Source: a virus (taxonomy: Duplodnaviria; Caudoviricetes). From it: DNA of 64,000 nt. The position numbers and the translations under genes were made by a program. The notes beneath the pieces were generated by a model. That model saw only the letters and a program-made list of their open reading frames with translations, was not told the DNA's origin and did no database searches. Shown here one piece after another: positions 1 to 57,929 of this stretch (positions are counted from its first letter, which is position 1; each line of letters starts with the position of its first letter). The stretch is taken from positions 32,001 through 96,000 of the IMG/VR virus record IMGVR_UViG_3300033073_001332; one strand, 5' to 3'.

Positions 1-3000
1 TCAAGTGGTTCTTCAGGTACTAGTGGGACAAATGGAACGTCTGGAACTAATGGAACAAGTGGTTCATCAGGTTCTTCAGGTTCCAGCGGAACAAGCGGAA
101 CAAACGGTACTTCAGGTACAAATGGTACAAATGGAACTAACGGTTCTAATGGTACTAGTGGTTCTTCAGGAACTAGTGGAACTAACGGAACAAGTGGTAC
201 AAATGGAACTTCAGGTACTAATGGTACAAGTGGTTCTTCAGGTATAAATGGTACATCAGGGTCAAGTGGCTCTTCAGGTATAAATGGTACAAGTGGTACT
301 AATGGTACTTCCGGTACTAACGGAACGTCAGGAACTAATGGTACTTCAGGTACGAATGGTACTAGCGGCTCTTCAGGTTTGAGTGGTACATCGGGTAGTT
401 CAGGAACTAGTGGTTCATCAGGTTCTTCAGGAGTTAATGGAACTGCAGGCTCTTCAGGAACAAGTGGTGTTGATGGTGTAACAGGAACAAGTGGGACATC
501 AGGTACTAACGGTACTTCAGGTACGAATGGTACTAATGGTTCATCAGGAAGTAGTGGTAGTTCAGGTTTATCCGGAACATCAGGAAGCAGTGGGTCTTCA
601 GGGTTGAATGGTACTTCAGGTACAAATGGTACTAGCGGTTCATCAGGTAGTTCAGGTTCAAGTGGATTGAATGGTACTTCAGGTACAAATGGCACTAGCG
701 GTTCATCAGGTAGTTCAGGTTCAAGTGGATTGAATGGTACTTCAGGTACAAATGGTACTAGTGGTTCGTCAGGAACTTCGGGTAGTTCAGGTTCGAGTGG
801 AACTAGTGGTTCTAGCGGGTCTTCAGGTACAAATGGGACATCAGGGTCTTCAGGTTCAAGTGGGTCTTCAGGTATAAATGGTACGTCAGGTACAAACGGA
901 ACAAGTGGAACTAACGGAACAAGTGGTACGTCAGGCTCAAGCGGGTCTTCAGGTATAAATGGAACGTCAGGTACTAACGGAACTAGTGGAACATCAGGTT
1001 CAAGTGGTTCTTCAGGTTCATCTGGTTTAAATGGTACATCAGGTACAAACGGAACATCAGGTACAAACGGAACATCAGGTTCTTCAGGTTCTTCAGGGAC
1101 AAGCGGAACAAATGGTACATCAGGGACAAACGGAACATCAGGAACTTCAGGTAGTTCAGGTTCAAGCGGATTGAATGGAACTTCAGGCACTAATGGTACG
1201 AGTGGAACTTCAGGTTCAAGTGGGTCTTCAGGTTCTTCAGGTACAAGTGGAACAAATGGAACTTCAGGTTCAAGCGGAAGTAGTGGTTCATCAGGTATTA
1301 GCGGCACTAGTGGAACAAATGGTACTAGTGGGTCATCAGGTACTTCTGGCTCATCAGGAACATCAGGAACGAATGGTACAAGTGGAACAAACGGAACATC
1401 AGGTTCAAGTGGTAGTAGCGGAACATCAGGTAGTAGTGGTAGTTCAGGGTTAAATGGAACTTCGGGAACTAACGGTACAAGTGGTTCTTCAGGTTCTAGC
1501 GGCTCTAGCGGTTCGTCAGGAACAAGTGGAACTAACGGAACTTCAGGTACAAATGGAACTAACGGAACTTCAGGTACGAATGGGACTTCAGGTTCAAGTG
1601 GGTCTTCAGGTATAAATGGTACTTCTGGAACAAACGGCACTAGCGGGACAAACGGAACATCAGGAACTTCAGGTTCAAGTGGCTCATCAGGTATAAATGG
1701 AACTAGTGGTACCAATGGTACTAATGGAACATCGGGCTCAAGTGGTACTAGCGGAACATCAGGTAGTAGTGGAACTTCAGGTACTAATGGTACTTCGGGA
1801 ACGAACGGTACATCGGGAACTTCAGGTTCTAGTGGTTCTTCAGGAACTAATGGAACAAGTGGTACAAACGGAACTTCAGGAAGTAGTGGTAGCTCAGGTA
1901 CAAGTGGTACAAATGGTACATCAGGGTCTTCAGGTTCAAGCGGTTCTTCAGGGACTTCAGGAACAAATGGCACTAGTGGAACCAATGGTACTAATGGAAC
2001 ATCGGGTTCTAGTGGAAGTAGTGGTACGAGTGGTTCATCAGGTAGTTCGGGAATAAATGGTACATCAGGTACTAATGGTACATCCGGTACTTCTGGTTCA
2101 AGTGGTAGTTCAGGTTCTAGTGGTACATCTGGAACAAATGGTACTTCCGGTACTAATGGAACAAGCGGTTCTTCGGGTAGTAGTGGTACTAGTGGTAGTT
2201 CAGGTTCAAGTGGATTGAATGGTACTAGCGGTACAAATGGTACTTCAGGGACAAGTGGTTCATCAGGCTCATCAGGTTCTAGTGGAACATCAGGTACGAA
2301 TGGAACTAGCGGAACTAACGGAACAAGTGGTACATCAGGGTCTTCAGGTATAAATGGAACTTCTGGTACATCAGGAAGTTCAGGTTCAAGCGGAACATCA
2401 GGAAGCAGTGGGTCTTCAGGTACAAGTGGTGTAAGTGGAGCATCAGGTACTTCAGGAACTAATGGTACAAATGGAACTTCAGGTTCTTCAGGTTCTTCAG
2501 GAAGTAGTGGTATTAACGGTACTTCAGGAACAAACGGTACATCAGGAACTAACGGAACAAATGGTACTTCGGGAACAAATGGAACTAGTGGTACTAGCGG
2601 AAGTAGTGGAAGTTCAGGAACTAGTGGTACCAATGGTACATCAGGAACTAACGGAACATCAGGTACTAACGGAACATCAGGAACCTCAGGTTCAAGTGGT
2701 TCGTCAGGATTAAATGGTACTAGCGGTACAAATGGCACTTCTGGAACAAATGGGACTAGCGGCACTTCAGGTTCAAGTGGTTCTTCAGGAATAAACGGTA
2801 CTTCAGGTACAAATGGTACTAGTGGTACTAACGGAACATCAGGTACTAGTGGTAGTTCAGGTTCTTCGGGAATCAATGGAACTTCAGGTACAAACGGAAC
2901 TAATGGGACATCAGGAACAAATGGAACATCAGGAACAAGTGGAAGTTCGGGTTCATCAGGAATAAATGGGACTTCAGGAACTAGTGGTTCATCTGGCTCA

Positions 3001-6000
3001 AGCGGAACGTCAGGTACAAATGGAACTAGCGGAACAAACGGTACAAATGGGACTAGTGGTACTTCGGGAAGTTCAGGTTCATCAGGATTGAATGGTACTA
3101 GTGGAACTAACGGGACTAGCGGCACATCGGGGTCTTCAGGTAGTAGTGGTTCGTCAGGTAGTTCAGGTACTAGTGGTACAAACGGTACTTCGGGCACAAA
3201 CGGTACCAATGGAACTAGCGGTACATCAGGAAGTTCAGGTTCATCAGGTATAAATGGTACTAGCGGTACAAATGGTACTTCTGGAACTAATGGTACGAGT
3301 GGGACTTCAGGTTCTTCAGGTAGTTCAGGTACTAGTGGAACAAACGGTACTTCAGGTACTAATGGTACAAACGGTACTAATGGAACTAGCGGTTCAAGTG
3401 GGTCTTCAGGATTGAATGGTACATCAGGTACTAACGGTACTAGCGGTGTTAATGGAACATCAGGAACGAGTGGAAGTTCAGGTTCATCAGGATTGAACGG
3501 TACTAGTGGTACAAATGGTACATCAGGTGCGAACGGAACATCTGGTACGAGTGGTTCATCCGGTAGTTCCGGATTGAATGGTACGTCAGGTACTAACGGA
3601 ACTTCAGGTACTAACGGCACTTCAGGAACTAATGGTACGAATGGTACAAGCGGAACAAATGGTACATCAGGTGCGAACGGAACATCTGGTACGAGTGGTA
3701 GTTCAGGTTCTTCAGGCACAAATGGAACATCAGGAACTAATGGAACAAGTGGTGTAAACGGTACATCGGGTACAAGCGGTTCTTCAGGTTCAAGTGGTAC
3801 GTCAGGTACTAATGGTACGAGTGGTACGAATGGAACATCAGGTGTTAACGGAACAAGTGGTACATCAGGCTCAAGTGGAAGTTCAGGTACTTCAGGAACT
3901 AACGGTACAAGCGGTACAAACGGGACTTCAGGTACTAGTGGTACAAATGGTACATCAGGAGTGAATGGAACTTCAGGTACTAGTGGTAGTTCGGGGTCAA
4001 GTGGAACTTCAGGTTCATCTGGTTCGAGTGGAACTTCTGGTACATCGGGTTCGAGTGGGACTTCAGGTACGAGTGGTAGTTCAGGTTCTAGTGGTTCTTC
4101 AGGTTCTAGTGGAACATCAGGTTCTAGTGGTAGAAACGGAACTAATGGTACTAACGGAACTTCAGGTACAAACGGTACTAATGGTACTAGCGGTACAAAC
4201 GGTACTTCAGGAACTAATGGTACCAATGGTACTAGCGGTACAAATGGTACTTCAGGTACTAACGGCACAAATGGGACATCAGGTACAAGTGGTTCATCAG
4301 GTTCAAGTGGTACTTCAGGAACAAACGGAACTAGTGGTGTAAATGGTACGTCAGGTACAAGTGGTTCATCAGGCTCAAGCGGAACATCAGGTACTAATGG
4401 TACTAGTGGCGTAAATGGAGCTAACGGTACATCAGGAACCAACGGAACTTCAGGTACAAACGGAACGAATGGAACTAGTGGTGTGAATGGAGCTAACGGT
4501 ACATCAGGAACAAATGGAACTAGTGGTTTGAATGGTGCTAACGGAACTTCAGGTACAAATGGAACTTCAGGGACAAACGGAACGAATGGTACTAGTGGTA
4601 CTAACGGAACATCAGGTACAAATGGCACTAGTGGTGTGAATGGAACAAGCGGTTCTTCGGGTTCAAGTGGTTCATCGGGTAGTTCAGGTTCATCGGGTAC
4701 TAGTGGAACAAATGGTACTTCAGGTTTATCAGGAGCTGCGGGTACTTCTGGAACTTCAGGTACTAATGGAACAAACGGAACTAGTGGTGCGAATGGTACT
4801 AATGGAACAAACGGAACTAGTGGTGTAAATGGGGCTAATGGTACAAACGGTACTAACGGAACTAGTGGTGTAAATGGAGCTAACGGGACTTCAGGTTCTA
4901 GCGGTTCTTCTGGTAGTTCAGGAACTAGCGGTGCTAACGGAGCTAATGGAACAAGCGGTTCTTCAGGTTCTTCAGGAACAAGTGGTGCCAACGGAGCTAA
5001 CGGAACTAATGGTACCAATGGAACATCAGGTTCAAGTGGTTCATCAGGTTCAAGTGGCTCATCAGGCACTAGCGGTGTAAATGGTGCTAACGGAACTAAT
5101 GGTACTAATGGAACAAGTGGTGTAAATGGAGCTAACGGAACAAATGGTACTAATGGAACAAGCGGTACAAATGGTACGAGCGGTGTGAATGGTGCTAATG
5201 GTACAAACGGTACGAGTGGTGTGAATGGGGCTAATGGTACATCAGGAACAAGCGGTTCTTCAGGTAGTTCAGGTTCTAGTGGTATTGATGGTCGAAGCGG
5301 TTCAAGTGGGGTAAGTGGTACAAATGGTACGAGTGGAACAAATGGAACGTCGGGAACTAATGGGACTTCAGGTACGAACGGAACGTCAGGTTCAAGTGGT
5401 AGTTCTGGAACTTCAGGTTTAGCAACACAAGTTGACGTACTTACTGGTACATCTGCAGGTCTTACATGGACTGAACCGGCAAATGCTAAAGCGGTATACG
5501 TAATGTGTATTGGTGGTGGTGCTGGTGGTGGTTCAGGAAGAAGAGGTTCTTCAGGGCTTGTTCGTGGAGGCGGCGGAGGCGGCGGAGGCGGAGGTATGAG
5601 TTTTGCAACCTTTAATGCGTCTGTTGTTTCTTCACCTGTTGCTTACACTTGTGGTACGGGCGGTGCTGGTGCTGGTTCAGTTGCTGTTGATAACACGAAT
5701 GGCTCAAACGGAGTTCAAGGGGGTCAAACAAACTTTGGAACGTTAATACTTGCTACAGGTGGCCTTGGTGGTGGGGGTGGTACTGCTTTAGGTAGTGGTG
5801 GAGCACCATCAGGCGCTAGTGGTTTAGGAATGATTTCAGCAGGAGGAACGGGACCTACGTCAAGTAGTACAGGAGCGGCAGGAACGATAGGAGGTTCTGC
5901 TAACTTTGCAGGTGGTTCTGGTGCTTCAGGAGGAGGAATTACAACAGGTAACGCGACAAGTGCAGGTGGTGTAGGTGGTACTGTTACATTTATCACGGGT

Positions 6001-6252
6001 GGTGCTGTTGGTGGAACTGCAGGTGCTGCTGGTGGTGGTGTCGGTGGTGCTGGAAACACAAATACACCTTCTTATATTGGTACTGGAGGTGGTGGTGGTG
6101 GTTCTAACACTGGAGGAAATGCAGGTGCTGGTGGAAACGGTGGTCTTTACGGTGGTGGAGGTGGAGGCGGTGGTGCTTCGACAAACGGTTTCGGAAGCGG
6201 CGGTGGAGGCGGCGGCGCTCAAGGTATGATTTTAGTTATCACATATTTTTAA
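1..6252 (+). CDS. Giant Gly-X-Y (GTS/GTN/GSS) repeat protein with C-terminal glycine-rich domain; putative virion fibre/decoration protein, 5'-truncated by the window
   Basis: Frame 1 is open from base 1 (tca agt ggt tct tca ggt = SSGSSG), so the 379 start is artificial. Gly occurs at every third residue until ~5420. A phage-type glycine-rich domain follows (WTEPANAKAVYVMCIGGGAGGGSG...GGGGAQGMILVITYF). Confidence 0.9.
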   Translation, partial: SSGSSGTSGTNGTSGTNGTSGSSGSSGSSGTSGTNGTSGTNGTNGTNGSNGTSGSSGTSGTNGTSGTNGTSGTNGTSGSSGINGTSGSSGSSGINGTSGTNGTSGTNGTSGTNGTSGTNGTSGSSGLSGTSGSSGTSGSSGSSGVNGTAGSSGTSGVDGVTGTSGTSGTNGTSGTNGTNGSSGSSGSSGLSGTSGSSGSSGLNGTSGTNGTSGSSGSSGSSGLNGTSGTNGTSGSSGSSGSSGLNGTSGTNGTSGSSGTSGSSGSSGTSGSSGSSGTNGTSGSSGSSGSSGINGTSGTNGTSGTNGTSGTSGSSGSSGINGTSGTNGTSGTSGSSGSSGSSGLNGTSGTNGTSGTNGTSGSSGSSGTSGTNGTSGTNGTSGTSGSSGSSGLNGTSGTNGTSGTSGSSGSSGSSGTSGTNGTSGSSGSSGSSGISGTSGTNGTSGSSGTSGSSGTSGTNGTSGTNGTSGSSGSSGTSGSSGSSGLNGTSGTNGTSGSSGSSGSSGSSGTSGTNGTSGTNGTNGTSGTNGTSGSSGSSGINGTSGTNGTSGTNGTSGTSGSSGSSGINGTSGTNGTNGTSGSSGTSGTSGSSGTSGTNGTSGTNGTSGTSGSSGSSGTNGTSGTNGTSGSSGSSGTSGTNGTSGSSGSSGSSGTSGTNGTSGTNGTNGTSGSSGSSGTSGSSGSSGINGTSGTNGTSGTSGSSGSSGSSGTSGTNGTSGTNGTSGSSGSSGTSGSSGSSGLNGTSGTNGTSGTSGSSGSSGSSGTSGTNGTSGTNGTSGTSGSSGINGTSGTSGSSGSSGTSGSSGSSGTSGVSGASGTSGTNGTNGTSGSSGSSGSSGINGTSGTNGTSGTNGTNGTSGTNGTSGTSGSSGSSGTSGTNGTSGTNGTSGTNGTSGTSGSSGSSGLNGTSGTNGTSGTNGTSGTSGSSGSSGINGTSGTNGTSGTNGTSGTSGSSGSSGINGTSGTNGTNGTSGTNGTSGTSGSSGSSGINGTSGTSGSSGSSGTSGTNGTSGTNGTNGTSGTSGSSGSSGLNGTSGTNGTSGTSGSSGSSGSSGSSGTSGTNGTSGTNGTNGTSGTSGSSGSSGINGTSGTNGTSGTNGTSGTSGSSGSSGTSGTNGTSGTNGTNGTNGTSGSSGSSGLNGTSGTNGTSGVNGTSGTSGSSGSSGLNGTSGTNGTSGANGTSGTSGSSGSSGLNGTSGTNGTSGTNGTSGTNGTNGTSGTNGTSGANGTSGTSGSSGSSGTNGTSGTNGTSGVNGTSGTSGSSGSSGTSGTNGTSGTNGTSGVNGTSGTSGSSGSSGTSGTNGTSGTNGTSGTSGTNGTSGVNGTSGTSGSSGSSGTSGSSGSSGTSGTSGSSGTSGTSGSSGSSGSSGSSGTSGSSGRNGTNGTNGTSGTNGTNGTSGTNGTSGTNGTNGTSGTNGTSGTNGTNGTSGTSGSSGSSGTSGTNGTSGVNGTSGTSGSSGSSGTSGTNGTSGVNGANGTSGTNGTSGTNGTNGTSGVNGANGTSGTNGTSGLNGANGTSGTNGTSGTNGTNGTSGTNGTSGTNGTSGVNGTSGSSGSSGSSGSSGSSGTSGTNGTSGLSGAAGTSGTSGTNGTNGTSGANGTNGTNGTSGVNGANGTNGTNGTSGVNGANGTSGSSGSSGSSGTSGANGANGTSGSSGSSGTSGANGANGTNGTNGTSGSSGSSGSSGSSGTSGVNGANGTNGTNGTSGVNGANGTNGTNGTSGTNGTSGVNGANGTNGTSGVNGANGTSGTSGSSGSSGSSGIDGRSGSSGVSGTNGTSGTNGTSGTNGTSGTNGTSGSSGSSGTSGLATQVDVLTGTSAGLTWTEPANAKAVYVMCIGGGAGGGSGRRGSSGLVRGGGGGGGGGGMSFATFNASVVSSPVAYTCGTGGAGAGSVAVDNTNGSNGVQGGQTNFGTLILATGGLGGGGGTALGSGGAPSGASGLGMISAGGTGPTSSSTGAAGTIGGSANFAGGSGASGGGITTGNATSAGGVGGTVTFITGGAVGGTAGAAGGGVGGAGNTNTPSYIGTGGGGGGSNTGGNAGAGGNGGLYGGGGGGGGASTNGFGSGGGGGGAQGMILVITYF
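604..767 (+). repeat. 63-bp near-perfect tandem repeat (~2.6 copies) inside the repeat gene
   Basis: ttgaatggtacttcaggtacaaatgg(t/c)actagcggttcatcaggtagttcaggttcaagtgga starts at 604 and 667, with a partial copy at 730. Confidence 0.85.
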
Positions 6253-8173
6253 TAGAGATATAAAAATCATAATATTTGCTACTAAAATCTTCATTGCAAG
6301 ACTTAATTTCATGGTTAGATTTATTGAATAAAGTGGTTTTAACTTGATTAATCATAACACCGACATTATCCGATAAAACACTTTCAAAATCATTATTTAG
6401 AATTTTAGGTGATGTCTTTAAAATGGATTTACCATATGTTATAAATTCGTATGGTAAACTATTAGTGTTGGTTGTAAAATCTAAAACTAAATCAGACATT
6501 AAAATAAAATCGTTATAATCCACACTTTCCAACCATAATCTACAATAAGTTGGTAATTTCATAATTACTTTTTTACTTTCTTCATCTTCATAATTTAAGT
6601 AATCAAAAAAATGAAATTCAACATTATTATTATATTGAAATGAATTGATTATTTTTTGTAAATTTTTAGGAATATCATATATATCATCAACAAAGCATAT
6701 TATATGTTTATGAGTATAATCTAATGAATATAATAAACAAGTTTTTATTTTTTCATGAAGTGGAATTTCATTTTTATTAAAATCATACCCCATATTTGGT
6801 ATATAAGATAATATGTTATTAGGCAATGGATAATCTATTTTTAAATCTTTATTAACATTAGAAAATAAATTAATCCCATCTTCTGATTTTATCACTTTCA
6901 AGTTTTGATTATTAAAAATTAAAGACATTAAATCATTAAATAATACATCATAGTTTGATGATTCATATTGACAGATATCAATATTATTTTTATTAATAAG
7001 ATTTAAAATTGATTCTATATTTTTATCAATTGTAATAAAATTTTTACTACCTATTATATTAATAATTTTATTAATCAAAGGTTGGTTATTTTTACCTTTA
7101 CCATTAAAATTTACTACGAAAAATTCAATACCCAAATCGGTATTATAAAGATATTGGATTCTTTTAAGTAAAATGTTGGTTTGACTATTTGTTATTATTT
7201 GAGGTATAAATAACATTACCTTGATTCTATCTTTATTGAATTTTTTAGTTGGTAAAATAATACCTGAGGTTTTTTCTATTAATTCTAAAACATCAGATAA
7301 ATCAAACTTATCTAAATCGTATTCTTTTGTTGTTATATATAACGTTTTAAAAATCTCCTCAAGTATATTACCATAACCAAAACTTTTTTTCAATCCCCAA
7401 ACATGTTTAATTTTATTAAAATTAAAATAATGATTTTCGTTCCACTCAGTTACAGGTGGACTCCATAAATTTGGGTGAAATACGTCATCAACAATGTATG
7501 AATTAAATTTTTGAGACATTAGAAGTCCGTAATCTTTTTGGTCTTTAGTTGATTTCATTGGCAACAACCATTGTTCTAAAAACGTAGTTTTTTGTGTGTT
7601 TGTTAATTCACACTCTTTGTTTTCGGATAAAATCTCATAAACAATTTCATACCAAGAGTCCAATAAGTTTTTATCATTCCAAAGTAGTAAAGCAACATTT
7701 GTTGGATTAACATTTAAGTCAAAATAATTAATATATTTTTCAGGAACAAAACTATCGAAATTAACATAAAAATTATATGGCTGAGACCAATCATAATTTT
7801 CTTCGTGGTATGCAACAAAAGATTTACTTAAGTCAAATTCTAACTCATCAGTTAACCACAAATCAGTATCAACCATAACAAAAGGTGGTTCTAACTTTGA
7901 GGAAATATATATCTTACAAAAACTCCAACAATTACTTCTATCTATATTTTTTGGGATGATATCAATTAACGAGGTATCAATTTTATCATATATTTTATCA
8001 ACTCCCCATTTTTTCAAACTTTCTAAATGTTCTTCATTACAATAAAGTTCAATCCTTCCATGATGTTTTTTCCATGTTAGTGCAGATATTGCTTGAATTG
8101 CAATTAATTCATCCTCCCATTCAATAGGACCTAATTTTTCAAAAACATGAACTCCTGTTAATTGTTGACCCAT
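6239..8173 (-). CDS. Glycosyltransferase-like protein: N-terminal GT-A/DUF6734-like domain plus degenerate GT4-like domain
   Basis: N-half has a DTD (DxD) motif and AISALTWKKHHGRIELYC. The C-half aligns by eye with the GT4 domain of the neighbouring 1527-aa protein. Confidence 0.65.
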   Translation of the reverse strand: MGQQLTGVHVFEKLGPIEWEDELIAIQAISALTWKKHHGRIELYCNEEHLESLKKWGVDKIYDKIDTSLIDIIPKNIDRSNCWSFCKIYISSKLEPPFVMVDTDLWLTDELEFDLSKSFVAYHEENYDWSQPYNFYVNFDSFVPEKYINYFDLNVNPTNVALLLWNDKNLLDSWYEIVYEILSENKECELTNTQKTTFLEQWLLPMKSTKDQKDYGLLMSQKFNSYIVDDVFHPNLWSPPVTEWNENHYFNFNKIKHVWGLKKSFGYGNILEEIFKTLYITTKEYDLDKFDLSDVLELIEKTSGIILPTKKFNKDRIKVMLFIPQIITNSQTNILLKRIQYLYNTDLGIEFFVVNFNGKGKNNQPLINKIINIIGSKNFITIDKNIESILNLINKNNIDICQYESSNYDVLFNDLMSLIFNNQNLKVIKSEDGINLFSNVNKDLKIDYPLPNNILSYIPNMGYDFNKNEIPLHEKIKTCLLYSLDYTHKHIICFVDDIYDIPKNLQKIINSFQYNNNVEFHFFDYLNYEDEESKKVIMKLPTYCRLWLESVDYNDFILMSDLVLDFTTNTNSLPYEFITYGKSILKTSPKILNNDFESVLSDNVGVMINQVKTTLFNKSNHEIKSCNEDFSSKYYDFYISIKNM

Positions 8174-8175
8174 AC

Positions 8176-11100
8176 TTAGTTTTTAATGTATAAAATAACT
8201 TCAAAATAGTATTCAATAAAATGCTCATTCCATAAATCCCATTTTATATCAACACCATCAACTGAATAAACTTCGTAGTTTTCAAATTGTGGTAAGATAT
8301 TATCTCTAAAATATCTAAATCTAACTTTATCTTTTTGACTTCTTAAATGCCATTCACCTGCAATTTTTTTAATGTTTTGTTTAATGAATGGTATATTTTC
8401 TTGTTTGAAAATTTCATATTCTCCACCTTCACAATCCGTCTTTAAAAAATCAATTTTTTGTAAACCATAAAGATTAACCAACTTATCAAATGTTATTGAT
8501 TCCATATGTGATTCACCTCCGAATAATTGGTCACATTCAACAATGCCATTGGTGTCAGATAAACCTTTGTTGATGTGAGTTACAGGGTGACCTATTGTGT
8601 TTTTAATAAGTGTTGTAAATTCACTTTCACTTGGTTCTACACAAAATACATGTTTTGGTTTTTTATGTAAAATTGAATATGTAAATGGTCCGATACTTGC
8701 TCCAACATCCAAAACAACATCACCTTTTTCGACCTCAAAGAATTTCTCATAAATGTTATTATTAAAAATTTCTTCTGTTATTGCACCTTTATGGAATTCT
8801 GCCAATTCTCTATCTGTGTCCATCCAACCCCAATCAAATTCAGATTTTGTAATAATTTCTTCTTTTGTTGGTTCTTCTTTGTTTATTATTTTTTCAATTC
8901 GTTCAATAACCATTTGGGAAGTTATTTCTTTTGTACACTCAAATTGTTTTTTAGTTCCTTTATGTTTTGGACACCAATTCCAATCACCAGCATCTAATCT
9001 ATTCCAATTAAAACATCCGTGACATACATTTTCATTAATCACTCTATATGTATCTAATGTTGTTTCTGCCCATTTTTCACTAAATCCTGAAATCAAAACA
9101 ACAGGTAATTCACACGCCCAAGCCAACCACGAAAGACCTGAACCTAAACCGATAAAGAACTCACAAGTTGATAAATCATTAATTACTTCTTGAACTGAAC
9201 CTCCTTTGAATTTTGTAACTCCTTTTGGATGTTTATTACCCATATACCCATCTTCTTCTCTTGAATATATCATAACTTCATATCCTAAGTTTTTTAAATA
9301 ATCAACAACTTCTTGCCATCCCGTTGGGTTGTTCCAATATTTTGCTTGTGCCGTTGAGTGAACTCCAATGCCGACTTTTTTCTTTTTTTCTACTTTTGGT
9401 AAATTAAGTTTCGGTCTAATTTCTTTATAATCTAATCCTAAAATATCCGATGCGCATTGTTGTAATGGAATTTGTTTGAAATCTGTTTTATGAACATTTC
9501 GGTCCCAATTCTCATCTGTACCCTCCTCTTCTGTGTAATACCAACCAATATTATATTGTGCTACAATATTGTTTACAACGGTTCCTGGCTCAACAAATTG
9601 AATTTCAGGGTATTGGTCTTTGAATAAGTCATTTAAGAATGTGCAAACAATTAATTCACATTGGTGTTTCTTTCTAAACTCCTCAACATATGGGAACCAA
9701 GATAAAGTATCACCTAACGATTTAGAACCAAATGAAATGAAAACCCTTTTATTTTTGTAATCATTTGTATTCGTATAAATTAATTCATCATTTTCTCTAA
9801 CCTCAACTCTCCAATTCGTATAATATTGTTTATTCATTTTAACCCAACTATTAATACCAATATCTTGATTATAAACAAGTTGGTTGTTGTCAAAAAATCT
9901 TATGTTTAGTTTATTGTCCGTCTTACCGTTGATTTCTAAATACGGATTAATTATGTAATGATTTAAAATACTATAATCATTTTTAATTTCTTCATTTTTC
10001 ATAAAATCTAATTCTAACACTTTTTTATAAAATTTAAGTAAATCACCACCCAAGTCAGATTTTTCTTTTAGTTGGTAGGTTTCTTTATTTTTAATCAATG
10101 ATAATAACTTATCTGATTTTAAATCAATTGTGTCAGAATCATTTATTTCTGTAATATAACCATCAAACATACCCATATATTGAGGTAAATTTCTAGCCAT
10201 TATTTTCATTCCATAACTTGCAGCTTCTCTAATAACCAATGGATTACACTCCCATGTTGAGTTAAACATTAAAACATCACAAGCCCTCATAAAATCATCC
10301 ACATCATTTCGTTCATACCATACCGTTACATTTGGTGGTAAGTTTTGCATGATAGGGGACCAATAATCTTCAAAGTTCGGTGCTTGGTTCCCTAAAAAAT
10401 GGAAATGAACATCTTTATTTTTTTCCCATAAATTTCTTGCGATTTCAACACCTTCACCTTGATTTTTACCTGATGTCCACAAACCAACATTCAACACATG
10501 AGTTTTGAAAAGGTCTAATCCTAATTTTTCTCTTTTGTTAATTTTTTCAATCATTGGGACTTTGAATTCATCGTTGTAGATTTGGTGACTTTCCTTTATT
10601 TCTGAAACAAAATCTTCAATCGGATAAAGGTGTAGTTCTTTATATGAAGGTTCGTTTTTAAATGTTTCTTTTAAATGAAATGGAGTTACAAGTGAATATG
10701 CATCTGGTCTAACTTTTCTATTTGCAGGATTAAACCAAATATTATGACACGACTCAACAATTTTCCAAGTCCTATCATTTGAAAAAATACCATTTAATAA
10801 AGTTTTTGAAACTCTGTTAAACTCTTCAAAGCCTTCACTTATTTCTTCAAAATGAACAATATCAATATTGTTATCTCTGATTATATCAATAAGTCTTTCT
10901 TTTTTCTCTTCTTCTTTTTCTTCGCCAATAACACTTAAATTGAAGAAATGATTTTCATCAAATAAATCTAATATTTGATTTCTTTGAACAATATACGTCC
11001 CGCTAAATAAACAAAACTCAACTAAAAATATTTCTAATTCATCTTTATGTTTTTGTAACTCCTGTATTCTTTTTAAAAGGAATTGTGGCATACCTCCTGT

Positions 11101-12756
11101 TGAAAGGTGTGGTGTAACATAAAGTAATTTAATTTTATTGTTTGATTTATTTTTATTTAAACTTTCCCAATAGGCTATTTCCATATCATCTTCATAATCT
11201 TGGTCTCTACCTTCTGAATCTGAAAAACTTGGTCCTTGTGTAAATAACATTGGTACGGTGATGCCAAAATCAAATTTCTTATGTCTATCATTATGAATAA
11301 ATCTGTAAGTGTCGGACGAACAATCATTTAAAAACATATCAACCGCACACATATAAAAAGGACTTGATGGTGTTAAATACTCGGTCATAATAGTCATCCA
11401 ATGTTCAACAAAATGTCTTTTGTAAAATAGCGATTGCGTACATAACATTTCTTCAAATGAACCATGTGTTTTACCTTTTAATTTAATCTCAGTTCTTGGT
11501 AATAATTTAACTCCTAAACCAACAACATCATAATTAGAAATGGTCTCATCCCAATTATCAAAAATCGCATCTATTTCACTTTTCGATACTCCATTCATTA
11601 ATTTAATATCATCTTCAAATACTATTACATTTTGAGCATCAGTTGATAAAAATTTAGAAAACAAATTAACGTATGCTGCATTACATCCCATTTTTCTATA
11701 TTCGGGATTATATAATATCACACCATCAATAAATTCATATCCCGTAATTTCTAATTCATTCAAAAGTTTAATAACACTTTCTTTTCTATCTGTTCGATGA
11801 GGTAAATTTATCACGTAACCCGCATCTGCAATTTTCTTATTTTTATAGTATAAACCTTTTAATTGTTCCATCATTTTATCTATTATGTTTAATCTTTTTT
11901 CTCCGTGAATGAAGAATAAATCTTCCCTTTTTGCTGGGACCATTAACCAATCCTTAATATATCTTGGTTCACCTGTAAATGTAGTTTTATTGTTTATTAA
12001 ATCAATTGTTTCTAAAGTCCCATTCACATAAACACTTGGGAGACCCTTATCAATTTTATATTTCCATAATAGACAATTAACAATAGTCTCTTCATGGTAT
12101 GCTGCATATTTTACCGTATTGTTTTTAATAATTGGATTATGACACATTTCCATCCATTCATTTATAAAATCTAATGAATTTTGACCTGCAAGATAATACC
12201 CTGTTTGTCTATATCCGGCTTGAAATCTAAATGATTGGTCTACATTATACAAATCACAGATTGGGTGTTCTAAAGTTTTTGTTAAATCGTCACCACCATT
12301 TCCAACACCATCCCACGACATAAAATCATATACTCCTTTTGTAAAATATGGAGTTGTTTCATCTTCAGGATATAAATCAAATATCTTTTCTAAGTTTGGT
12401 AAACAGACCGTATCTGCGTCTAAATAACATACCGTTTCTGAGTAATTTTCTAAAACATCTTTTGTGATAAAAGGTCTTTGAATTAAAGTATCATAAATTT
12501 CAATTTGGTTTCTATCAATATAAAAAGACCCGTCATTGTTTACCTCGTATAGGGTTTCACTTTTTCTAATATCACAAATTAGTTTTTTTACATAAACGTT
12601 TTCTTCGTTTATTTCTTCAAAATAATTTAACAAATAGACAAAGATTGGTAGATTAGAATAAGACCTTATACTTTTGATTGTTTTTTTTATTATTGGTAGA
12701 TAGTTCACATTCCCGTATAATAGAAATGATTTTTTGAATTTTTCTTTATTTTCCAT
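8176..12756 (-). CDS. Multidomain glycosyltransferase: GT-A (GT8-like) + GT25-like + GT4 + autotransporter O-heptosyltransferase (TibC/Aah-like) + FkbM methyltransferase
   Basis: YLDADT (GT-A); VINLPHRTDRK...VFEDD (GT25); TPHLSTGGMP...WECNPLVIREA (GT4); SLGDTLSWFPYVEEFRKKH, STAQAKYWNNPTGW, GLGSGLSWLAW and CHGC-x13-C-x11-C (TibC-type); LDVGASIG...LKTDCEGGE (FkbM). Confidence 0.85.
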   Translation of the reverse strand: MENKEKFKKSFLLYGNVNYLPIIKKTIKSIRSYSNLPIFVYLLNYFEEINEENVYVKKLICDIRKSETLYEVNNDGSFYIDRNQIEIYDTLIQRPFITKDVLENYSETVCYLDADTVCLPNLEKIFDLYPEDETTPYFTKGVYDFMSWDGVGNGGDDLTKTLEHPICDLYNVDQSFRFQAGYRQTGYYLAGQNSLDFINEWMEMCHNPIIKNNTVKYAAYHEETIVNCLLWKYKIDKGLPSVYVNGTLETIDLINNKTTFTGEPRYIKDWLMVPAKREDLFFIHGEKRLNIIDKMMEQLKGLYYKNKKIADAGYVINLPHRTDRKESVIKLLNELEITGYEFIDGVILYNPEYRKMGCNAAYVNLFSKFLSTDAQNVIVFEDDIKLMNGVSKSEIDAIFDNWDETISNYDVVGLGVKLLPRTEIKLKGKTHGSFEEMLCTQSLFYKRHFVEHWMTIMTEYLTPSSPFYMCAVDMFLNDCSSDTYRFIHNDRHKKFDFGITVPMLFTQGPSFSDSEGRDQDYEDDMEIAYWESLNKNKSNNKIKLLYVTPHLSTGGMPQFLLKRIQELQKHKDELEIFLVEFCLFSGTYIVQRNQILDLFDENHFFNLSVIGEEKEEEKKERLIDIIRDNNIDIVHFEEISEGFEEFNRVSKTLLNGIFSNDRTWKIVESCHNIWFNPANRKVRPDAYSLVTPFHLKETFKNEPSYKELHLYPIEDFVSEIKESHQIYNDEFKVPMIEKINKREKLGLDLFKTHVLNVGLWTSGKNQGEGVEIARNLWEKNKDVHFHFLGNQAPNFEDYWSPIMQNLPPNVTVWYERNDVDDFMRACDVLMFNSTWECNPLVIREAASYGMKIMARNLPQYMGMFDGYITEINDSDTIDLKSDKLLSLIKNKETYQLKEKSDLGGDLLKFYKKVLELDFMKNEEIKNDYSILNHYIINPYLEINGKTDNKLNIRFFDNNQLVYNQDIGINSWVKMNKQYYTNWRVEVRENDELIYTNTNDYKNKRVFISFGSKSLGDTLSWFPYVEEFRKKHQCELIVCTFLNDLFKDQYPEIQFVEPGTVVNNIVAQYNIGWYYTEEEGTDENWDRNVHKTDFKQIPLQQCASDILGLDYKEIRPKLNLPKVEKKKKVGIGVHSTAQAKYWNNPTGWQEVVDYLKNLGYEVMIYSREEDGYMGNKHPKGVTKFKGGSVQEVINDLSTCEFFIGLGSGLSWLAWACELPVVLISGFSEKWAETTLDTYRVINENVCHGCFNWNRLDAGDWNWCPKHKGTKKQFECTKEITSQMVIERIEKIINKEEPTKEEIITKSEFDWGWMDTDRELAEFHKGAITEEIFNNNIYEKFFEVEKGDVVLDVGASIGPFTYSILHKKPKHVFCVEPSESEFTTLIKNTIGHPVTHINKGLSDTNGIVECDQLFGGESHMESITFDKLVNLYGLQKIDFLKTDCEGGEYEIFKQENIPFIKQNIKKIAGEWHLRSQKDKVRFRYFRDNILPQFENYEVYSVDGVDIKWDLWNEHFIEYYFEVILYIKN

Positions 12757-12793
12757 CAATAAAAAGATAAGACTTACGAACGACTAAATGAAG

Positions 12794-12801
12794 TATTTAT
12801 A
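12794..12801 (+). promoter_or_regulatory. TATTTATA putative phage late promoter
   Basis: 7 nt upstream of ATG 12809; the same motif precedes 15 gene starts in the window. Confidence 0.6.
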
Positions 12802-12808
12802 AAATAAA

Positions 12809-13816
12809 ATGCCAACACCAAACAAAATAAAATTTACAACAACTCAATCTAATGGGACTATAAAGGTTGGTAATTATATTGTTGGTGTAAGTAGTGGGGT
12901 AACCTACGGACCAACATCGGTAACAGGATTTTATCAAAGTTTAGCTCCCGTAACGAGTGGTTTTACTATACATCAAAATAAAGCAACTTTAGGACCATCC
13001 ACTTTTAGACCTAATAATGATACTGAATTTATTAATTTAACAAAAAAATTAGGGGGTAATGTTACAGGAGTAACTGATAGTTTAGTATACCTGTCATCTC
13101 AATCCGATATAATCGTATTGAATCGAACATATGAGGAAATTGTAACCAGTGGTTTAACTTTTTGTGTGGATGCTGGATATACTCCATCATATTTAAGGTC
13201 AGGAACTACTTGGACTGATTTAAGTTTTAGTGGTAGTAATGGGACTTTAACTAATGGACCAACATTCGATATTAATAATGGTGGTTCTATAGTGTTTGAT
13301 GGTGTGAATGATTATGTAAATTTTGGTAATAAGAATTTAGGTTTAGATTTAGTAAATAAATCATTTTGTGCTTGGGTTTATCTTGGGTCGACACTTGCAA
13401 ATCCAACTGGTATTATTGATAAAGATTTTGATACAGGTCCTGGTGTTTACGGTGGTTGGGGATTTTGGGTAGGTTCTGACAGAAAGCTTTGGTGGTGGAA
13501 TACTGCAAACCAAGATATAAGAGATACGGGAACTGCAATTGGAACTAATGTTTGGACTCACGTTGCGGTAACATATAATGCCTCAACAAAAACAGCTACA
13601 TTCTATCTAAACGGAACCTTTAATTCAAGTGCTTCAAACTCAAGTGTAAGTGAACTATCCTCAAGTACCCAACCATTGGTAATAGGTTGTATAAGAAACG
13701 CCGTTGGAGCGTTTTTGAACGGTAGAATCGCAAATGTTTTAGCTTATAATCGAATTTTATCAGCATCTGAAGTTTCACAAAATTACAACGCTCAAAAATC
13801 AAGATTCGGTCTTTAA
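12809..13816 (+). CDS. LamG/concanavalin A-like jellyroll protein (putative virion lectin/decoration protein)
   Basis: GLTFCVDAG, FDGVNDYV, WTHVAVTY...FYLNG and YNRILSASEVSQNYNA LamG motifs. Confidence 0.85.
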   Translation: MPTPNKIKFTTTQSNGTIKVGNYIVGVSSGVTYGPTSVTGFYQSLAPVTSGFTIHQNKATLGPSTFRPNNDTEFINLTKKLGGNVTGVTDSLVYLSSQSDIIVLNRTYEEIVTSGLTFCVDAGYTPSYLRSGTTWTDLSFSGSNGTLTNGPTFDINNGGSIVFDGVNDYVNFGNKNLGLDLVNKSFCAWVYLGSTLANPTGIIDKDFDTGPGVYGGWGFWVGSDRKLWWWNTANQDIRDTGTAIGTNVWTHVAVTYNASTKTATFYLNGTFNSSASNSSVSELSSSTQPLVIGCIRNAVGAFLNGRIANVLAYNRILSASEVSQNYNAQKSRFGL

Positions 13817-13859
13817 TTAAATTCTTTTTTTTTATTATTACTTTCTTATCTTTCATAGT

Positions 13860-14792
13860 ATGAAAGACATTTGTTTAGATTTAACGGGATGTAGGGCTTT
13901 AGGTGATACTTTATGTGTTACACCAACAATTAGAAAATTATATAATTCATATAATAGAAAAATATCAGTTATTACAAATAATCCTGACCTATTTCAAACA
14001 AACAATTATATCAAAAACATTTATGATATTAATGTTGATAGGGACGTATTAAAAATGTCATACGATATATTTGATACTTTTGATTTATCATACAAAGATA
14101 ATGGTGTATGTAATAAACATAACGCCATGGATATTAGACAATTTCATGCGGTGTCATTAGGGTTTATGTTAAATAAAGAAGAAATGACTTTAGATTACAG
14201 ACCGAACACCAATTGTATGATACCTAACTTACCTAAAAAATATGTATTAATACATTCAGTTCAGAATTGGAATTCAAGAACTTGGTCGTTTGATAATTGG
14301 AGGTTATTAACAAAATTATTAAATGAGAAGGGTATTGCGGTTATATCGGTAGGGAAAGACTCATCAGAAACAGGAGGTTCAAATGTTGAAAAACCTGCCT
14401 TTGATTTCGATATTGAAAATGGTTTGAATTTAGTTAATAAAACTACTCTTGATGAAACATGGCATTTAATATCAAATTCTTTATGTTTTGTAACGATGGA
14501 TTCAGGTCTACTACATTTAGCAGGAACAACCGATGCTGAAATTATTCAACTTGGTAGTTCAATAAATCCTGAGTTTAGGTCACCATTTAGAAATGGTTCA
14601 CAAGAATACAAATATCATTATGTAAGAGGTGGTTGCGGATTAAATTGTGCGTCTGATGTAAAATATGGTGTTAGAGAGTGGGGTTCAATACATGGAGTTC
14701 CTCCTTTAGTTGATTGTTTAGAACGAAAATCAACATTCGAGTGTCACCCAACGGTAATGCAAGTCTATAATAAAATAATAGAACTGATTTAA
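13860..14792 (+). CDS. GT9/heptosyltransferase-like glycosyltransferase
   Basis: ALGDTLCVTP, SRTW...W, TMDSGLLHLAG; C-terminal Cys cluster (CGLNC...DC...FECHP). Confidence 0.75.
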   Translation: MKDICLDLTGCRALGDTLCVTPTIRKLYNSYNRKISVITNNPDLFQTNNYIKNIYDINVDRDVLKMSYDIFDTFDLSYKDNGVCNKHNAMDIRQFHAVSLGFMLNKEEMTLDYRPNTNCMIPNLPKKYVLIHSVQNWNSRTWSFDNWRLLTKLLNEKGIAVISVGKDSSETGGSNVEKPAFDFDIENGLNLVNKTTLDETWHLISNSLCFVTMDSGLLHLAGTTDAEIIQLGSSINPEFRSPFRNGSQEYKYHYVRGGCGLNCASDVKYGVREWGSIHGVPPLVDCLERKSTFECHPTVMQVYNKIIELI

Positions 14793-14817
14793 ATGGTATT
14801 TATCTAATAAAGATTAG

Positions 14818-16451: not shown

Positions 16452-16550
16452 ATGGGGCAAATTCATGGAAATTGTGCGGAATGTGGTCAAAACGGACCAT
16501 TAGATAAAAACAACAAATGCTCTGTTTGTGGAACAAAAAATAATAGATAA
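16452..16550 (+). CDS. 32-aa zinc-ribbon microprotein (not in ORF track)
   Basis: MGQIHGNCAECGQNGPLDKNNKCSVCGTKNNR*: CxxC-x11-CxxC. Starts 2 nt after the upstream stop and its TAA overlaps the next ATG (TAATG). Confidence 0.65.
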   Translation: MGQIHGNCAECGQNGPLDKNNKCSVCGTKNNR

Positions 16551-46894: not shown

Positions 46895-47647
46895 TTATTG
46901 ATTATGTATTTTTCTTAAAGTATCTAAATATAATGTTTTATATTTTTTTAGATATGACCTTATTTCTTTTGTGTTAAGGTTAGTCATTTCTCTTAAGGTT
47001 AGTAATACAATATTTTTATTGAATTTATTATTGTCGTTACCTATAAAAATATTCCCATAATCCTCAAAAAGTTCAATTAAAGCGTACCCTAACTTACTTT
47101 CATTATCTTGTAGGTCTGTATCGTTTACATATTTTTTCAAATCGTTTAAAAAAACGTCTATAATCTTTTCAGCATCTATTTTTTCAAACTCTAAATAATA
47201 GACCATATCCGGTCTATTTTCTAATGTACCGGATATGTCCTCATATGAAATTTTTCTATTAGTTTCTTTTTGGTCTTTCAGAATTTGACCCATCAAGTAA
47301 TTTTTACAGATGGTACCAAAATAAGAATATGCTTTTTTATTTTTGGCAGGTTTAAACTTATCGACTTTAGTCATTAGGAAAGAATGGGTATCACTATGAA
47401 TATCATTATAATTCATATCCTTCCTATAAAGTTTATACCTTCTTATGATTGATTCAATCATCTTATCAAGAGGTTCTCTTAAAAATTGGTTATATATAAC
47501 TTCTTTTTCTTGTTTGGTGTCGGCTATTATATAAGCCTTTACCGCCTCTTCTTCACGTACATCGAAGTAATTATTTTTTTTTACTTTCTTTTCCGTCTTA
47601 TTCTCTTCGTAAGTAACTTCTAAAACAGTTCCTGACGATACAAACAT
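46895..47647 (-). CDS. Late-transcription sigma factor (T4 gp55-like)
   Basis: KVDKFKPAKNKKAYSYFGTICKNYLMGQI resembles sigma region 2 of gp55-type factors. Confidence 0.7.
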   Translation of the reverse strand: MFVSSGTVLEVTYEENKTEKKVKKNNYFDVREEEAVKAYIIADTKQEKEVIYNQFLREPLDKMIESIIRRYKLYRKDMNYNDIHSDTHSFLMTKVDKFKPAKNKKAYSYFGTICKNYLMGQILKDQKETNRKISYEDISGTLENRPDMVYYLEFEKIDAEKIIDVFLNDLKKYVNDTDLQDNESKLGYALIELFEDYGNIFIGNDNNKFNKNIVLLTLREMTNLNTKEIRSYLKKYKTLYLDTLRKIHNQ

Positions 47648-48453: not shown

Positions 48454-48457
48454 AATA

Positions 48458-49525: not shown

Positions 49526-49528
49526 TTT

Positions 49529-56538: not shown

Positions 56539-57117
56539 TTATTTTTTAAACATTTTATTTTCTACGATTTCTAATATTGTGTGTCCAAGTAGAGTATGAC
56601 ATTCTTGTATTCTTGCCGTGTTATTTGATGGTATTATTAAACTAACATCTGAAATATCTTTCATTTCACCACCATCATTTCCTATAAATGAAATTACATA
56701 TGAGCCTTTAGATTTTGCAACATCAATCGCTTTAATAACATTTTTAGATTTACCTGATGTTGAAAAACAAATTAAAATATCACCTTCTTTAACTGATGAT
56801 TTTATTTCACGATAAAAGATGTCTGAGTAAGAATAGTCATTTCCTACTGCAGTCAAATAAGAAACGTTGGAGGCCAATAAAACAACCTCTAACGGTTCCC
56901 TATCAAAGTAAAAACGACCACTTAATTCTGCTGATAAATGTTGAGCATCTGCAAAACTACCACCATTACCACAAAAGAATACTTTATTACCTCTATTATA
57001 ACATTCTATAATTTTTTCAGCAATTATATTTGAGTTATTTATAATAACCTCATCATTCAAAAGTTTAGTTTTTAATTCAATAGACTCTTGAATGTTTTTT
57101 ATAATCATTTCTACCAT
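56539..57117 (-). CDS. gmhA: Sedoheptulose-7-phosphate isomerase
   Basis: CGNGGSFADAQH, GNDY, STSGKS.N, TARIQECH; start probably MVEM at 57117. Confidence 0.9.
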   Translation of the reverse strand: MVEMIIKNIQESIELKTKLLNDEVIINNSNIIAEKIIECYNRGNKVFFCGNGGSFADAQHLSAELSGRFYFDREPLEVVLLASNVSYLTAVGNDYSYSDIFYREIKSSVKEGDILICFSTSGKSKNVIKAIDVAKSKGSYVISFIGNDGGEMKDISDVSLIIPSNNTARIQECHTLLGHTILEIVENKMFKK

Positions 57118-57929
57118 ACTGTTTTCCCTCCGTCGATTACCACATTTGAACCTGTCATATATGAACTTGCGTCTGAACACATAAAAACAATTGCTCCTTT
57201 ATATTCATCAATATGAGCCATTCTACCCATTGGTATAATATTAGATAACTTGGTAACAAAATCAACAGGATGGTCATTATAAACTCCCGTTGGACTTAAA
57301 CAATTTACTCTAATATTATTTTTAGCAAAATATGTAGAAAGATATTTTGTCATACCGATAACCGCCCATTTAGCTGCAGAATATGTAATTGGTTTTACAT
57401 TTTGTTCATCTTCGGATTTTGTTTCATCTCGATATATTCTTTGGTCGGGAGCAATTACACCTAAATCTGATGATATATTTAATACAACACCACCACCCGT
57501 TTGCAACATCTTATTACAGATTATTTGTGATGTAAGAAAAGTACCATTAATAATTGCATCAATACCCTCTTTAAAATAAGATTCAGTCATTACCTCAAAT
57601 CTAGTTTCAGGTGTTAAACTTTTATCATCTTTTGTTACTTTTGGGTCTTTAGCCGCGTTGTTTATTAAAATATCAATCCTATCATATTTTTCTGAGACCT
57701 GTAAGATTGTTTCTTTTTTTGTGACATCCATATATTCCCAAAAAACATTCTCTTCACCATAGATTGATGAAAGTTTTTGATGTTTTTCGGATAACGATTT
57801 TGTATCAACATCTGTAAGAATAACTTTAGCACCGTACTCTAAAAGTGCTTCGGCATGTTTAGGACCTAATAATCCACCCGCACCTGTCACTAAAGCTACC
57901 TTACCATCTAAATCAAATAAATTTCTCAT
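57111..57929 (-). CDS. SDR oxidoreductase (PtmA-like)
   Basis: TGAGGLLG, NNAA, YSAAK, IRVNCLSP.G, DGG. Confidence 0.88.
   Translation of the reverse strand: MRNLFDLDGKVALVTGAGGLLGPKHAEALLEYGAKVILTDVDTKSLSEKHQKLSSIYGEENVFWEYMDVTKKETILQVSEKYDRIDILINNAAKDPKVTKDDKSLTPETRFEVMTESYFKEGIDAIINGTFLTSQIICNKMLQTGGGVVLNISSDLGVIAPDQRIYRDETKSEDEQNVKPITYSAAKWAVIGMTKYLSTYFAKNNIRVNCLSPTGVYNDHPVDFVTKLSNIIPMGRMAHIDEYKGAIVFMCSDASSYMTGSNVVIDGGKTVW

Follow-up and report, generated by a model that had tools for sequence, protein, structure and literature searches.

The DNA analyzed here is a 64,000-nt window comprising bases 32001-96000 of a 219,553-bp IMG/VR virus record (IMGVR_UViG_3300033073_001332), for which CheckV estimates a completeness of 75%. 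Genes for a portal, a large terminase and a gp23-like major head protein confirm the phage origin, and the virus is a distant T4-like myophage; judged by the capsid, the cultured phages nearest to it are Microcystis phage Mel-JY01 and Flavobacterium phages (~42% identity). The window begins with the 3' two thirds of a giant collagen-like fibre gene on the plus strand (1..6252), which is followed on the minus strand, in convergent orientation, by an operon of glycosyltransferase (GT) genes. One of these (8176..12759) encodes a 1527-aa five-domain enzyme with a TibC/Aah-type (BAHT family) domain. An earlier note, made from the letters of this DNA, had proposed a phage-encoded protein O-glycosylation system at this block. 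Comparative evidence from related sequences supports well the existence of a predicted phage O-glycosylation module around the TibC-type enzyme, with the fibre as its putative acceptor.

The fibre gene encodes 3196 aa; it starts at genome position 28662, 3339 bases 5' of the window, and its reading frame (+1) is unbroken from the first window base to position 6252. Translation, triplet counts and Pfam and PHROG searches show that 933 Gly-X-Y triplets lie between a non-repeat N-terminal part of 122 aa and a Gly-rich C-terminal domain of 275 aa (window ~5425-6249). The triplets form one unbroken run (residues 123-2921, 2799 residues), bearing out the Ser/Thr-Gly array of more than 2000 aa described in the earlier note. 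The X position is occupied by Thr in 520 triplets, Ser in 312 and aliphatic residues (L/I/V/A) in 99, and the Y position by Ser in 672 and Asn in 250, and the tract contains 1505 Ser/Thr hydroxyls and 239 Asn-Gly-[Ser/Thr] sequons. There is no Pro in the tract and there are only 8 charged residues among its 2799; the helix-stabilizing Pro/Hyp or charged residues at X and Y of known bacterial collagens are thus missing from it. Samples of the fibre match PF01391 (Collagen) with 101-202 bits (202 bits for a 401-aa sample), the C-terminus matches PF21722 (Gly_rich_2) with 25.7 bits, and the PHROG matches are to collagen-like tail and tail-fibre families. The N- and C-terminal domains show no conservation even among phages.

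Both Ser codon families (TCN and AGY) are used in the fibre gene, and its DNA repeats, whose periods are multiples of 9, are only ~62-85% similar to each other, indicating that the constraint acts on the protein, with Gly at every third residue. Judged from these repeats, a recent DNA expansion or a simple DNA repeat is not the origin of the tract. Collapse of the array during assembly is unlikely, and arrays of comparable size are found on related contigs from other samples. The Gly-X-Y frame was also considered as a by-product of an open reading frame (ORF) on the opposite strand; this was rejected because the plus frame alone joins the N- and C-terminal domains with Pfam and PHROG matches, and the use of both Ser codon families and the presence of the same frame in relatives also counter it. 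The 219-kb record has only two Gly-X-Y ORFs, of which the giant one is separated from the enzyme gene by 1.9 kb. The other one (1153 aa; genome 169108-172566, plus strand, outside the window) has four short Ser/Thr-rich runs of 177 aa in total.

The gene of the 1527-aa enzyme starts with TTG at 12759 or, more likely, with ATG at 12756. A domain-by-domain scan shows that all five of its domains, encoded on the minus strand, exceed curated cut-offs: GT8 (residues 16-232, 12064..12714; PF01501, 28.0 bits, cut-off 24.3), GT25-like (~residues 310-560, 11080..11832; PF01755, 31.9 bits, cut-off 24), GT4 with a GT-B fold (~residues 560-900, 10060..11082; PF00534, 35.4 bits, cut-off 26.4), TibC/Aah-type or BAHT (residues 950-1291, 8887..9912; TIGR04414, 293.9 bits, cut-off 200) and FkbM-family methyltransferase (residues 1348-1479, 8323..8718; TIGR01444, 51.2 bits; PF05050, 33.6 bits, cut-off 22.7). 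The multidomain GT with GT8, GT25, GT4 and FkbM parts read by the earlier note is thus real. The note had also placed the fibre gene directly beside it; the two do share one block, but a gene for a 644-aa protein lies between them.

A sequence search of the PDB matches the fourth domain to TibC (4rb4/4rap) with E = 1.8e-68 across TibC residues 49-385. Its AlphaFold model (pLDDT 90.9) superposes on 4rap/4rb4 with a TM score of 0.88, a root-mean-square deviation of 2.5 Å and 38% identity, while the same model reaches TM scores of only 0.43-0.54 against the lipopolysaccharide (LPS) heptosyltransferases WaaC and WaaF. The model contains the predicted elements of the TibC fold, namely the N-terminal beta-barrel, the GT-B core, the beta-hairpin thumb and an intact iron-finger insertion, and the family and structure search against TibC/Aah that the earlier note had called for therefore came out in its favor. 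We used the alignment to locate the residues that the TibC structure paper (PMC4358343) names. In TibC, Asp-110 is the catalytic base, Thr-226 and Lys-230 bind the beta-phosphate, Trp-305 binds heptose O4, Arg-286 contacts adenine N1, which is the authors' basis for the use of an ADP-activated donor, and Pro-300 is the selector between D,D- and L,D-heptose (PMC4358343). The LGD, AKYW and C-x-x-C...C...C motifs, already noticed in this domain, align residue by residue with TibC D110, K230 and C339/C342/C358/C370. The catalytic base is Asp1017 here, and the donor-site motifs are STAQAKYW and GLSWLAW. Among 39 phage and 20 bacterial relatives there is no variation at the positions of TibC D110, T226, K230, W305 and the four Cys, and over 105 relatives the same holds for the catalytic base, three donor-binding residues and the four iron-finger Cys (predicted iron ligands). 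Three of the four TibC donor-binding residues are kept in the window enzyme, the exception being Arg-286, which is replaced by Val; the replacement of Pro-300 by Gly is a further departure from TibC. The hydrophobic thumb-tip pair is Tyr-Met and is kept in 38 of the 39 phage enzymes. A two-copy homodimer prediction of the domain gave a score of 0.00, which has no bearing either way. By its sequence and predicted fold, the fourth domain is a true BAHT (TibC/Aah) relative and not an LPS-core GT9.

The TIGR04414-type domain is encoded on 373 IMG/VR viral contigs. We compared the loci of the best 80 of these, clustered at 90% identity into 38 lineages, and found that 28 of the 38 have a Gly-X-Y ORF rich in Ser, Thr and Asn at a distance of 0-5 kb, usually convergent with the enzyme gene and sometimes upstream on the same strand. 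Most loci that have no nearby repeat are cut by a contig end. Five such records were searched whole: one complete genome has a giant array ~36 kb away, one record has an array far off, one has an array at the contig edge, and two have none. In the reverse direction, viral contigs were picked solely by a degenerate DNA pattern encoding GTSGTNGTSG[ST][ST]G. TIGR04414 scores above its cut-off in 20 of the 49 contigs searched, most of which are 3-60% fragments, and the base rate is 373 in 2.9 million contigs. The pairing is also seen in distant phages. In the cultured Microcystis phage Mel-JY01, an enzyme 51% identical to that of the window is found at the end of a 1226-aa protein annotated as "methyltransferase FkbM", with a Gly-X-Y ORF 1.7 kb upstream, and a 735-kb phage encodes a GT4-enzyme fusion (43% identity) with a Gly-X-Y ORF 3.6 kb away. 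The Mel-JY01 record (PP395634.1) contains at 2-3049 (+) an unannotated collagen-like ORF with 528 aa of Gly-X-Y (PF01391, 220 bits). Over the same DNA it annotates two minus-strand 'hypothetical' coding sequences (1-651 and 739-2298), and the arbitrary start of the record cuts the collagen-like ORF.

A bacterial scan with one genome per species found 317 relatives, and the loci of the best 80 were compared. The bacterial enzymes nearest the phage ones (45-49% identity) are standalone genes of 370-440 aa among housekeeping genes in Methylobacter, Methylomicrobium, Polaromonas, Burkholderiaceae and other proteobacterial chromosomes (Methylococcales, Burkholderiales). A small ORF lies 4-180 bp from the standalone enzyme and encodes a Sec signal peptide or a lipobox, directly followed by a (Gly-Thr-Ser/Ala/Asn)n tract of 15-114 aa; an example from a Methylobacter chromosome is SGTNGTSGTSGLSGTNGTSGTNG. 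The repeat is the sole feature that the bacterial partners share with the phage fibres. The distant-phage and bacterial cases are the independent evidence for the pairing of enzyme and repeat, and the co-occurrence with Gly-[ST]-[SN] repeat genes that the earlier note had proposed as a check is thus strong in phages and is found independently in bacteria. Grouping of the fourth domain with LPS-core GT9 enzymes and absence of co-occurrence were the two in silico outcomes named in advance as counting against the proposal; owing to the TibC fold with its iron finger and to the recurrent pairing, neither was obtained.

We built a tree of 107 domains, with E. coli Aah-like enzymes and Salmonella AIDA-I partner enzymes fetched as controls. 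The tree has two groups, split by a branch with 100% SH-aLRT support. One group holds 36 bacterial enzymes that have no repeat, together with the E. coli and Salmonella controls; the 36 come from Negativicutes, Lentisphaeria, Desulfovibrionaceae and Oxalobacter and are often tandemly paired next to an ORF of over 1000 aa. The other group is made up of 39 enzymes from phages, 25 bacterial ones adjacent to a repeat and 5 further bacterial ones, and the window enzyme falls in this sister clade and does not branch with TibC/Aah. The control loci with Aah-like enzymes do adjoin autotransporters, while the partner of the window enzyme is a Gly-X-Y protein and not an autotransporter with a beta-helical passenger. 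The state of the Arg-286 position tracks the two-clade split. None of the 39 phage enzymes has Arg (V 31, L 4, I 2, T 1, A 1), and the position is non-Arg in 17 of 20 repeat-adjacent bacterial enzymes (Arg in 3), whereas Arg is present in 37 of 46 bacterial enzymes that have no long repeat nearby. In the tree, the difference at Arg-286 is essentially one clade-level change rather than a set of independent ones.

Two further forms were seen in bacteria. In metagenome-assembled genomes of Arenicellales/Gammaproteobacteria, the standalone enzyme retains Arg-286 and has repeat proteins on both flanks, one a lipoprotein with (GTS)n and an acidic tail and the other a larger protein ending in (GSS)n and an Asp run; this form may be an intermediate between the two clades. 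Seven loci from Negativicutes metagenome-assembled and other genomes have classical-clade BAHT genes as tandem pairs of diverged paralogues, and the two of these loci with enough flanking DNA have an ORF of 1000-2200 aa beside the pair. This arrangement suggests two-enzyme heptosylation systems in gut and rumen anaerobes.

The conservation of the module was counted over 37 related phage lineages. A GT4 stretch is the near-constant fusion partner of the TibC-like domain (35/37 lineages, and also Mel-JY01 and the 735-kb phage), FkbM is found in ~22/37, the second GT9-like gene of the block in 16/37 and lectin genes in 7-11/37. GT8 and GT25 are each rare (1-2/37), and a homologue of the 644-aa protein, which has a DUF6734 part, was found in none of the 37 loci. 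Because GT8, GT25 and DUF6734 are rare or absent in relatives, the form of the GT4-BAHT(-FkbM) core found in the window is unusually elaborate.

We consider it likely that the block forms a phage-encoded module for protein O-glycosylation and that the giant fibre, through its Gly-[Thr/Ser]-[Ser/Asn] tract, is the acceptor; the acceptor role of the tract, the order in which the domains act and the virion location of the fibre are what we infer. The TibC-like domain, an inverting GT-B enzyme with Asp1017 as its base, would transfer a nucleotide-activated sugar onto Ser, and perhaps Thr, of the 933-triplet tract in the cytoplasm of the infected cell. The fused GT4 domain would most likely add a second sugar and the FkbM domain would most likely methylate the glycan; further extension in the window phage may come from its GT8 and GT25 domains, from the second GT9-like enzyme and from the downstream GT-A/GT-B protein. 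The coated fibre would then be assembled into the virion within the tail-fibre/host-recognition module. The TibC ring encloses its substrate, a repetitive protein that is modified on Ser in the cytoplasm (PMC4358343); this location fits a phage acceptor because the cytoplasm is where virion proteins are made. For the 239 Asn-Gly-[Ser/Thr] sequons, N-glycosylation is unsupported, and neither a GT41/HMW1C-type enzyme nor an oligosaccharyltransferase was seen among the ORFs scanned. A fuller picture can be offered tentatively, although we are rather doubtful that it holds in all its parts. The fibre would be a collagen of a new kind, a proline-free, nearly uncharged Gly-Thr/Ser-Ser/Asn triple helix, stabilized by dense O-glycans from a ring-shaped TibC-like enzyme through which the chain is threaded and coated processively; environmental bacteria would likewise have glycans take the place of hydroxyproline in short secreted (GTS)n stalks, and the donor is possibly not ADP-heptose. 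At the canonical rise of 0.286 nm, a triple helix of 2799 residues would reach ~0.8 micrometres.

Several observations weigh against a glycosylated fibre. The case rests on gene linkage, and no glycan has been seen on any such fibre. One enzyme-bearing phage record that is 85% complete has no Gly-X-Y array at all, and several large repeat-bearing contigs, one of them 84% complete, have no enzyme. Part of the phage co-occurrence is inherited synteny, because many of these phages are related. The acceptor would also differ in kind, since TibC recognizes a beta-helix and the tract here is collagen-like or disordered. Further, GT8, GT25, GT4 and GT9 are classic LPS-core families, which in the case of the GT8 and GT25 domains also speaks against action on the fibre, and favors instead an enzyme that remodels the LPS core, O-chain or capsule of the infected host, for example against superinfection, and whose gene lies near the fibre gene only because the two share the hypervariable host-recognition region. 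GTs in the tail-fibre region of aquatic (pelagi)myophages have been read in the published work as modifying the host O-chain (PMC7029224), and a 16-kb sugar-pathway and GT locus is present in the same window. We nevertheless regard such remodeling as quite unlikely here: the fourth domain groups with protein O-glycosyltransferases and not with LPS heptosyltransferases, its standalone bacterial homologues pair with a repeat protein in housekeeping contexts and not in LPS loci, the 20 of 49 contigs in the reverse search go beyond a chance neighbor, and no flippase, polymerase or lipid-carrier enzyme was seen among the ORFs scanned.

If the TibC-like domain does act on protein, its substrates could be other virion proteins, such as the ConA-like lectins and [ST]-G-x-[ST]-rich proteins, and the tract a mere neighbor. 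Outside the giant gene, the [ST]-G-x-[ST] motif has 255 copies where within-protein shuffles predict 103, and these are concentrated in ~12 large proteins (z = 4-9.5), although turns in beta-rich fibre proteins might be enough to account for the excess. Next to the enzyme gene are three Laminin_G_3 virion-type genes, with homologues in 7-11 of 37 related loci, but lectin genes are much less conserved beside the enzyme than the repeat gene is. The bacterial loci have no lectin-domain partner and only the small (GTS)n protein, and the repeat is the one feature common to all partners, which leaves this explanation unlikely. Proteins rich in [ST]-G-x-[ST] are encoded in the window at 41253-42728 (-) and outside it at genome 105646-107793, 165482-168505, 169108-172566 and 178041-180245. 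Alternatively, the TibC-like ring might work chiefly as a chaperone or assembly factor of long Gly-X-Y fibres, without catalysis, and the linkage would then reflect folding; this would fit the substrate-enclosing ring of TibC (PMC4358343) and the hydrophobic Tyr-Met thumb tip of 38 of the 39 phage enzymes. The invariance of the catalytic base and three donor-binding residues across 105 sequences indicates selection for catalysis, and the domain is nearly always fused to another glycosyltransferase, making a chaperone highly improbable.

For a module that glycosylates the fibre, the nature of the donor sugar is a separate question. The earlier note had assumed priming with heptose from a precursor made by GmhA, and this part of its proposal is not supported. 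Searches of the 75%-complete record gave no match for HldE (rfaE domain I or II) or GmhB and no true HldD, only a weak match to a short-chain dehydrogenase/reductase (SDR), which argues against heptose. The gmhA gene reported in the distal operon is present as a GmhA-like SIS isomerase gene (56539..57180, minus strand); it scores below the equivalog cut-off (TIGR00441, 178.4 bits, cut-off 209.45), and its neighbors are NeuB-like, PseF-like cytidylyltransferase, PtmA-like SDR, class IV aminotransferase and MptE-like genes, that is, a NeuB/cytidylyltransferase cluster. Of 25 BAHT-bearing phage records, only 4 have gmhA-like genes (2 of the 7 near-complete ones), which also speaks against heptose, and 8 have small cytidylyltransferase-like genes, none over cut-off. 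A link between the gmhA-like gene and the TibC-like enzyme is therefore not supported. The analogy with TibC suggests ADP-heptose. With the adenine contact lost and no heptose pathway traveling with the enzyme, the donor may be either host ADP-heptose read differently or another nucleotide sugar; the transferred sugar is about equally likely to be heptose or not.

The gmhA-like gene belongs to a long glycan locus on the minus strand (47647-63977). Domain scans of this locus show genes for GT2-like and GT4-like enzymes, PhoH, Gmd (over the equivalog cut-off), an RfbH-like protein, a GDP-fucose-synthase-like protein, a TIGR04372 GT and a phosphatase. They also show the NeuB-like, GmhA-like and PtmA-like SDR genes, a TIM-barrel gene, the class IV aminotransferase and the PseF-like cytidylyltransferase, as well as genes for an MptE-like (Maf-type) protein, a STELLO-like GT and a carbamoyltransferase. 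Judged by these family matches, the Gmd, RfbH-like and fucose-synthase-like trio fits a GDP-deoxyhexose such as colitose and does not prove it. That the distal pathways feed the same glycan as the TibC-like enzyme is not supported.

To our knowledge, all BAHT enzymes described so far are partners of virulence autotransporters and come from a few proteobacteria. Literature searches gave only coincidental matches and no account of BAHT enzymes in connection with phages or collagen-like repeats. The window enzyme resembles those of the E. coli TibC-TibA and Aah-AIDA-I systems (TIGR04414; 4RAP/4RB4; PMC4358343) in family and fold, in the catalytic Asp, the Thr/Lys pair, the Trp and the four Cys, and in the thumb tip. 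As in those systems, the enzyme gene adjoins the gene of a highly repetitive Ser-rich protein, here a putative acceptor, and cytoplasmic action is proposed. It differs from TibC/Aah in its separate clade, in its fusion into a multi-enzyme protein, in being encoded by a phage, in having a Gly-X-Y partner instead of a beta-helical passenger and in the replacement of Arg-286 by Val and of Pro-300 by Gly.

Other glycosylated repeat proteins offer partial parallels. The serine-rich repeat adhesins with GtfA/GtfB, such as PsrP with GlyE in Streptococcus pneumoniae, likewise combine a very long Ser-rich repeat with a cytoplasmic priming GT-B enzyme and extension enzymes, including GT8, beside the gene, and the GlyE structure (PDB 5gvv) is a fold match of the 644-aa protein. 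Unlike those systems, the window has a BAHT-like priming enzyme, a strict Gly-X-Y period and no accessory Sec system. BclA of the Bacillus anthracis exosporium is a Thr-rich Gly-X-Y protein that is heavily O-glycosylated and forms surface filaments; unlike the window fibre it has short Gly-Pro-Thr repeats, its GTs are not known to be related to BAHT, and it is a protein of the spore and not of the virion. Giant viruses carry glycosylated fibrils, and in them as in mycobacteriophages virus-encoded GTs modify structural proteins of the virus itself. Glycosylation in mycobacteriophages and giant viruses concerns capsid and tail-tube proteins and fibrils and differs from the window system in its enzyme families and acceptors, which are not known to include a BAHT enzyme or a collagen-like acceptor. 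Virion glycosylation in mycobacteriophages is mentioned in the literature (PMC11256854, PMC12363180).

Our results indicate a second, larger BAHT branch that is widespread among environmental phages, with at least 373 viral contigs, and among free-living bacteria, and whose acceptors are of a different class. Should the fibre carry glycans, glycosylation of phage virion proteins would reach well past the mycobacteriophages, and the many "LPS-type" GTs in the tail-fibre regions of aquatic myophages would gain an alternative explanation to host-surface modification. A glycosylated fibre would also be a natural test of whether a proline-free collagen helix can be stabilized by glycans, and the cytoplasmic enzyme and a (GTS)n tag would form a pair for glycoengineering. 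The pairing is directly testable because it is present in the cultured phage Mel-JY01 and in culturable methanotrophs.

The remaining genes of the block surround the five-domain enzyme. The 644-aa protein (6239..8173, minus strand) is a predicted two-domain GT with an N-terminal DUF6734/GT-A-like part (PF20508, 35.2 bits) and a C-terminal GT-B-like part; its gene is the last of the operon and overlaps the end of the fibre gene by 14 bp. Its AlphaFold model (pLDDT 84) has Foldseek matches to GlyE and LARGE1 for the GT-A part and to GT-B enzymes and UDP-GlcNAc 2-epimerases for the other, and the further GT-like gene that the earlier note had listed is thus predicted to encode a GT-A plus GT-B protein. 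A sequence search of the PDB with the GT8 and GT25 parts of the large enzyme gave nothing significant; the best match, procollagen galactosyltransferase 1 (E ~0.1), was not counted as evidence. On the plus strand beyond the operon, 12809..13816 encodes a 335-aa ConA-like lectin (Laminin_G_3) virion-type protein (PF13385, 79.4 bits; phrog_8510, virion structural protein), which marks the block as a fibre/host-recognition module. It is followed by a second GT9-like GT of 310 aa (13860..14792, plus strand; PF01075, 52.5 bits). This gene had been noted before and is real, but its product is generic, has no iron finger and matches LPS heptosyltransferases and TIGR04414 only weakly. Pfam and PHROG searches show two further Laminin_G_3 virion-type proteins at 14818-16449 and 16550-17548 (plus strand).

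Promoter and terminator scans of window 5900-15000 gave no sites in excess of shuffles, no tRNA genes were found in the window, and a near-identity DNA search of a phage collection gave a sole, chance-like match of 389 bp. The GC content is ~30% across the window and ~46% in the repeat gene. The major head protein (612 aa, window 37938-39776, plus strand) has a gp23-like match that spans only ~residues 360-590, so that a large N-terminal part lies outside the match. A Lon-like ATP-dependent protease of 679 aa (window 23247-25286, minus strand; phrog_4871, E = 1.5e-224) is encoded next to a peptidase gene.

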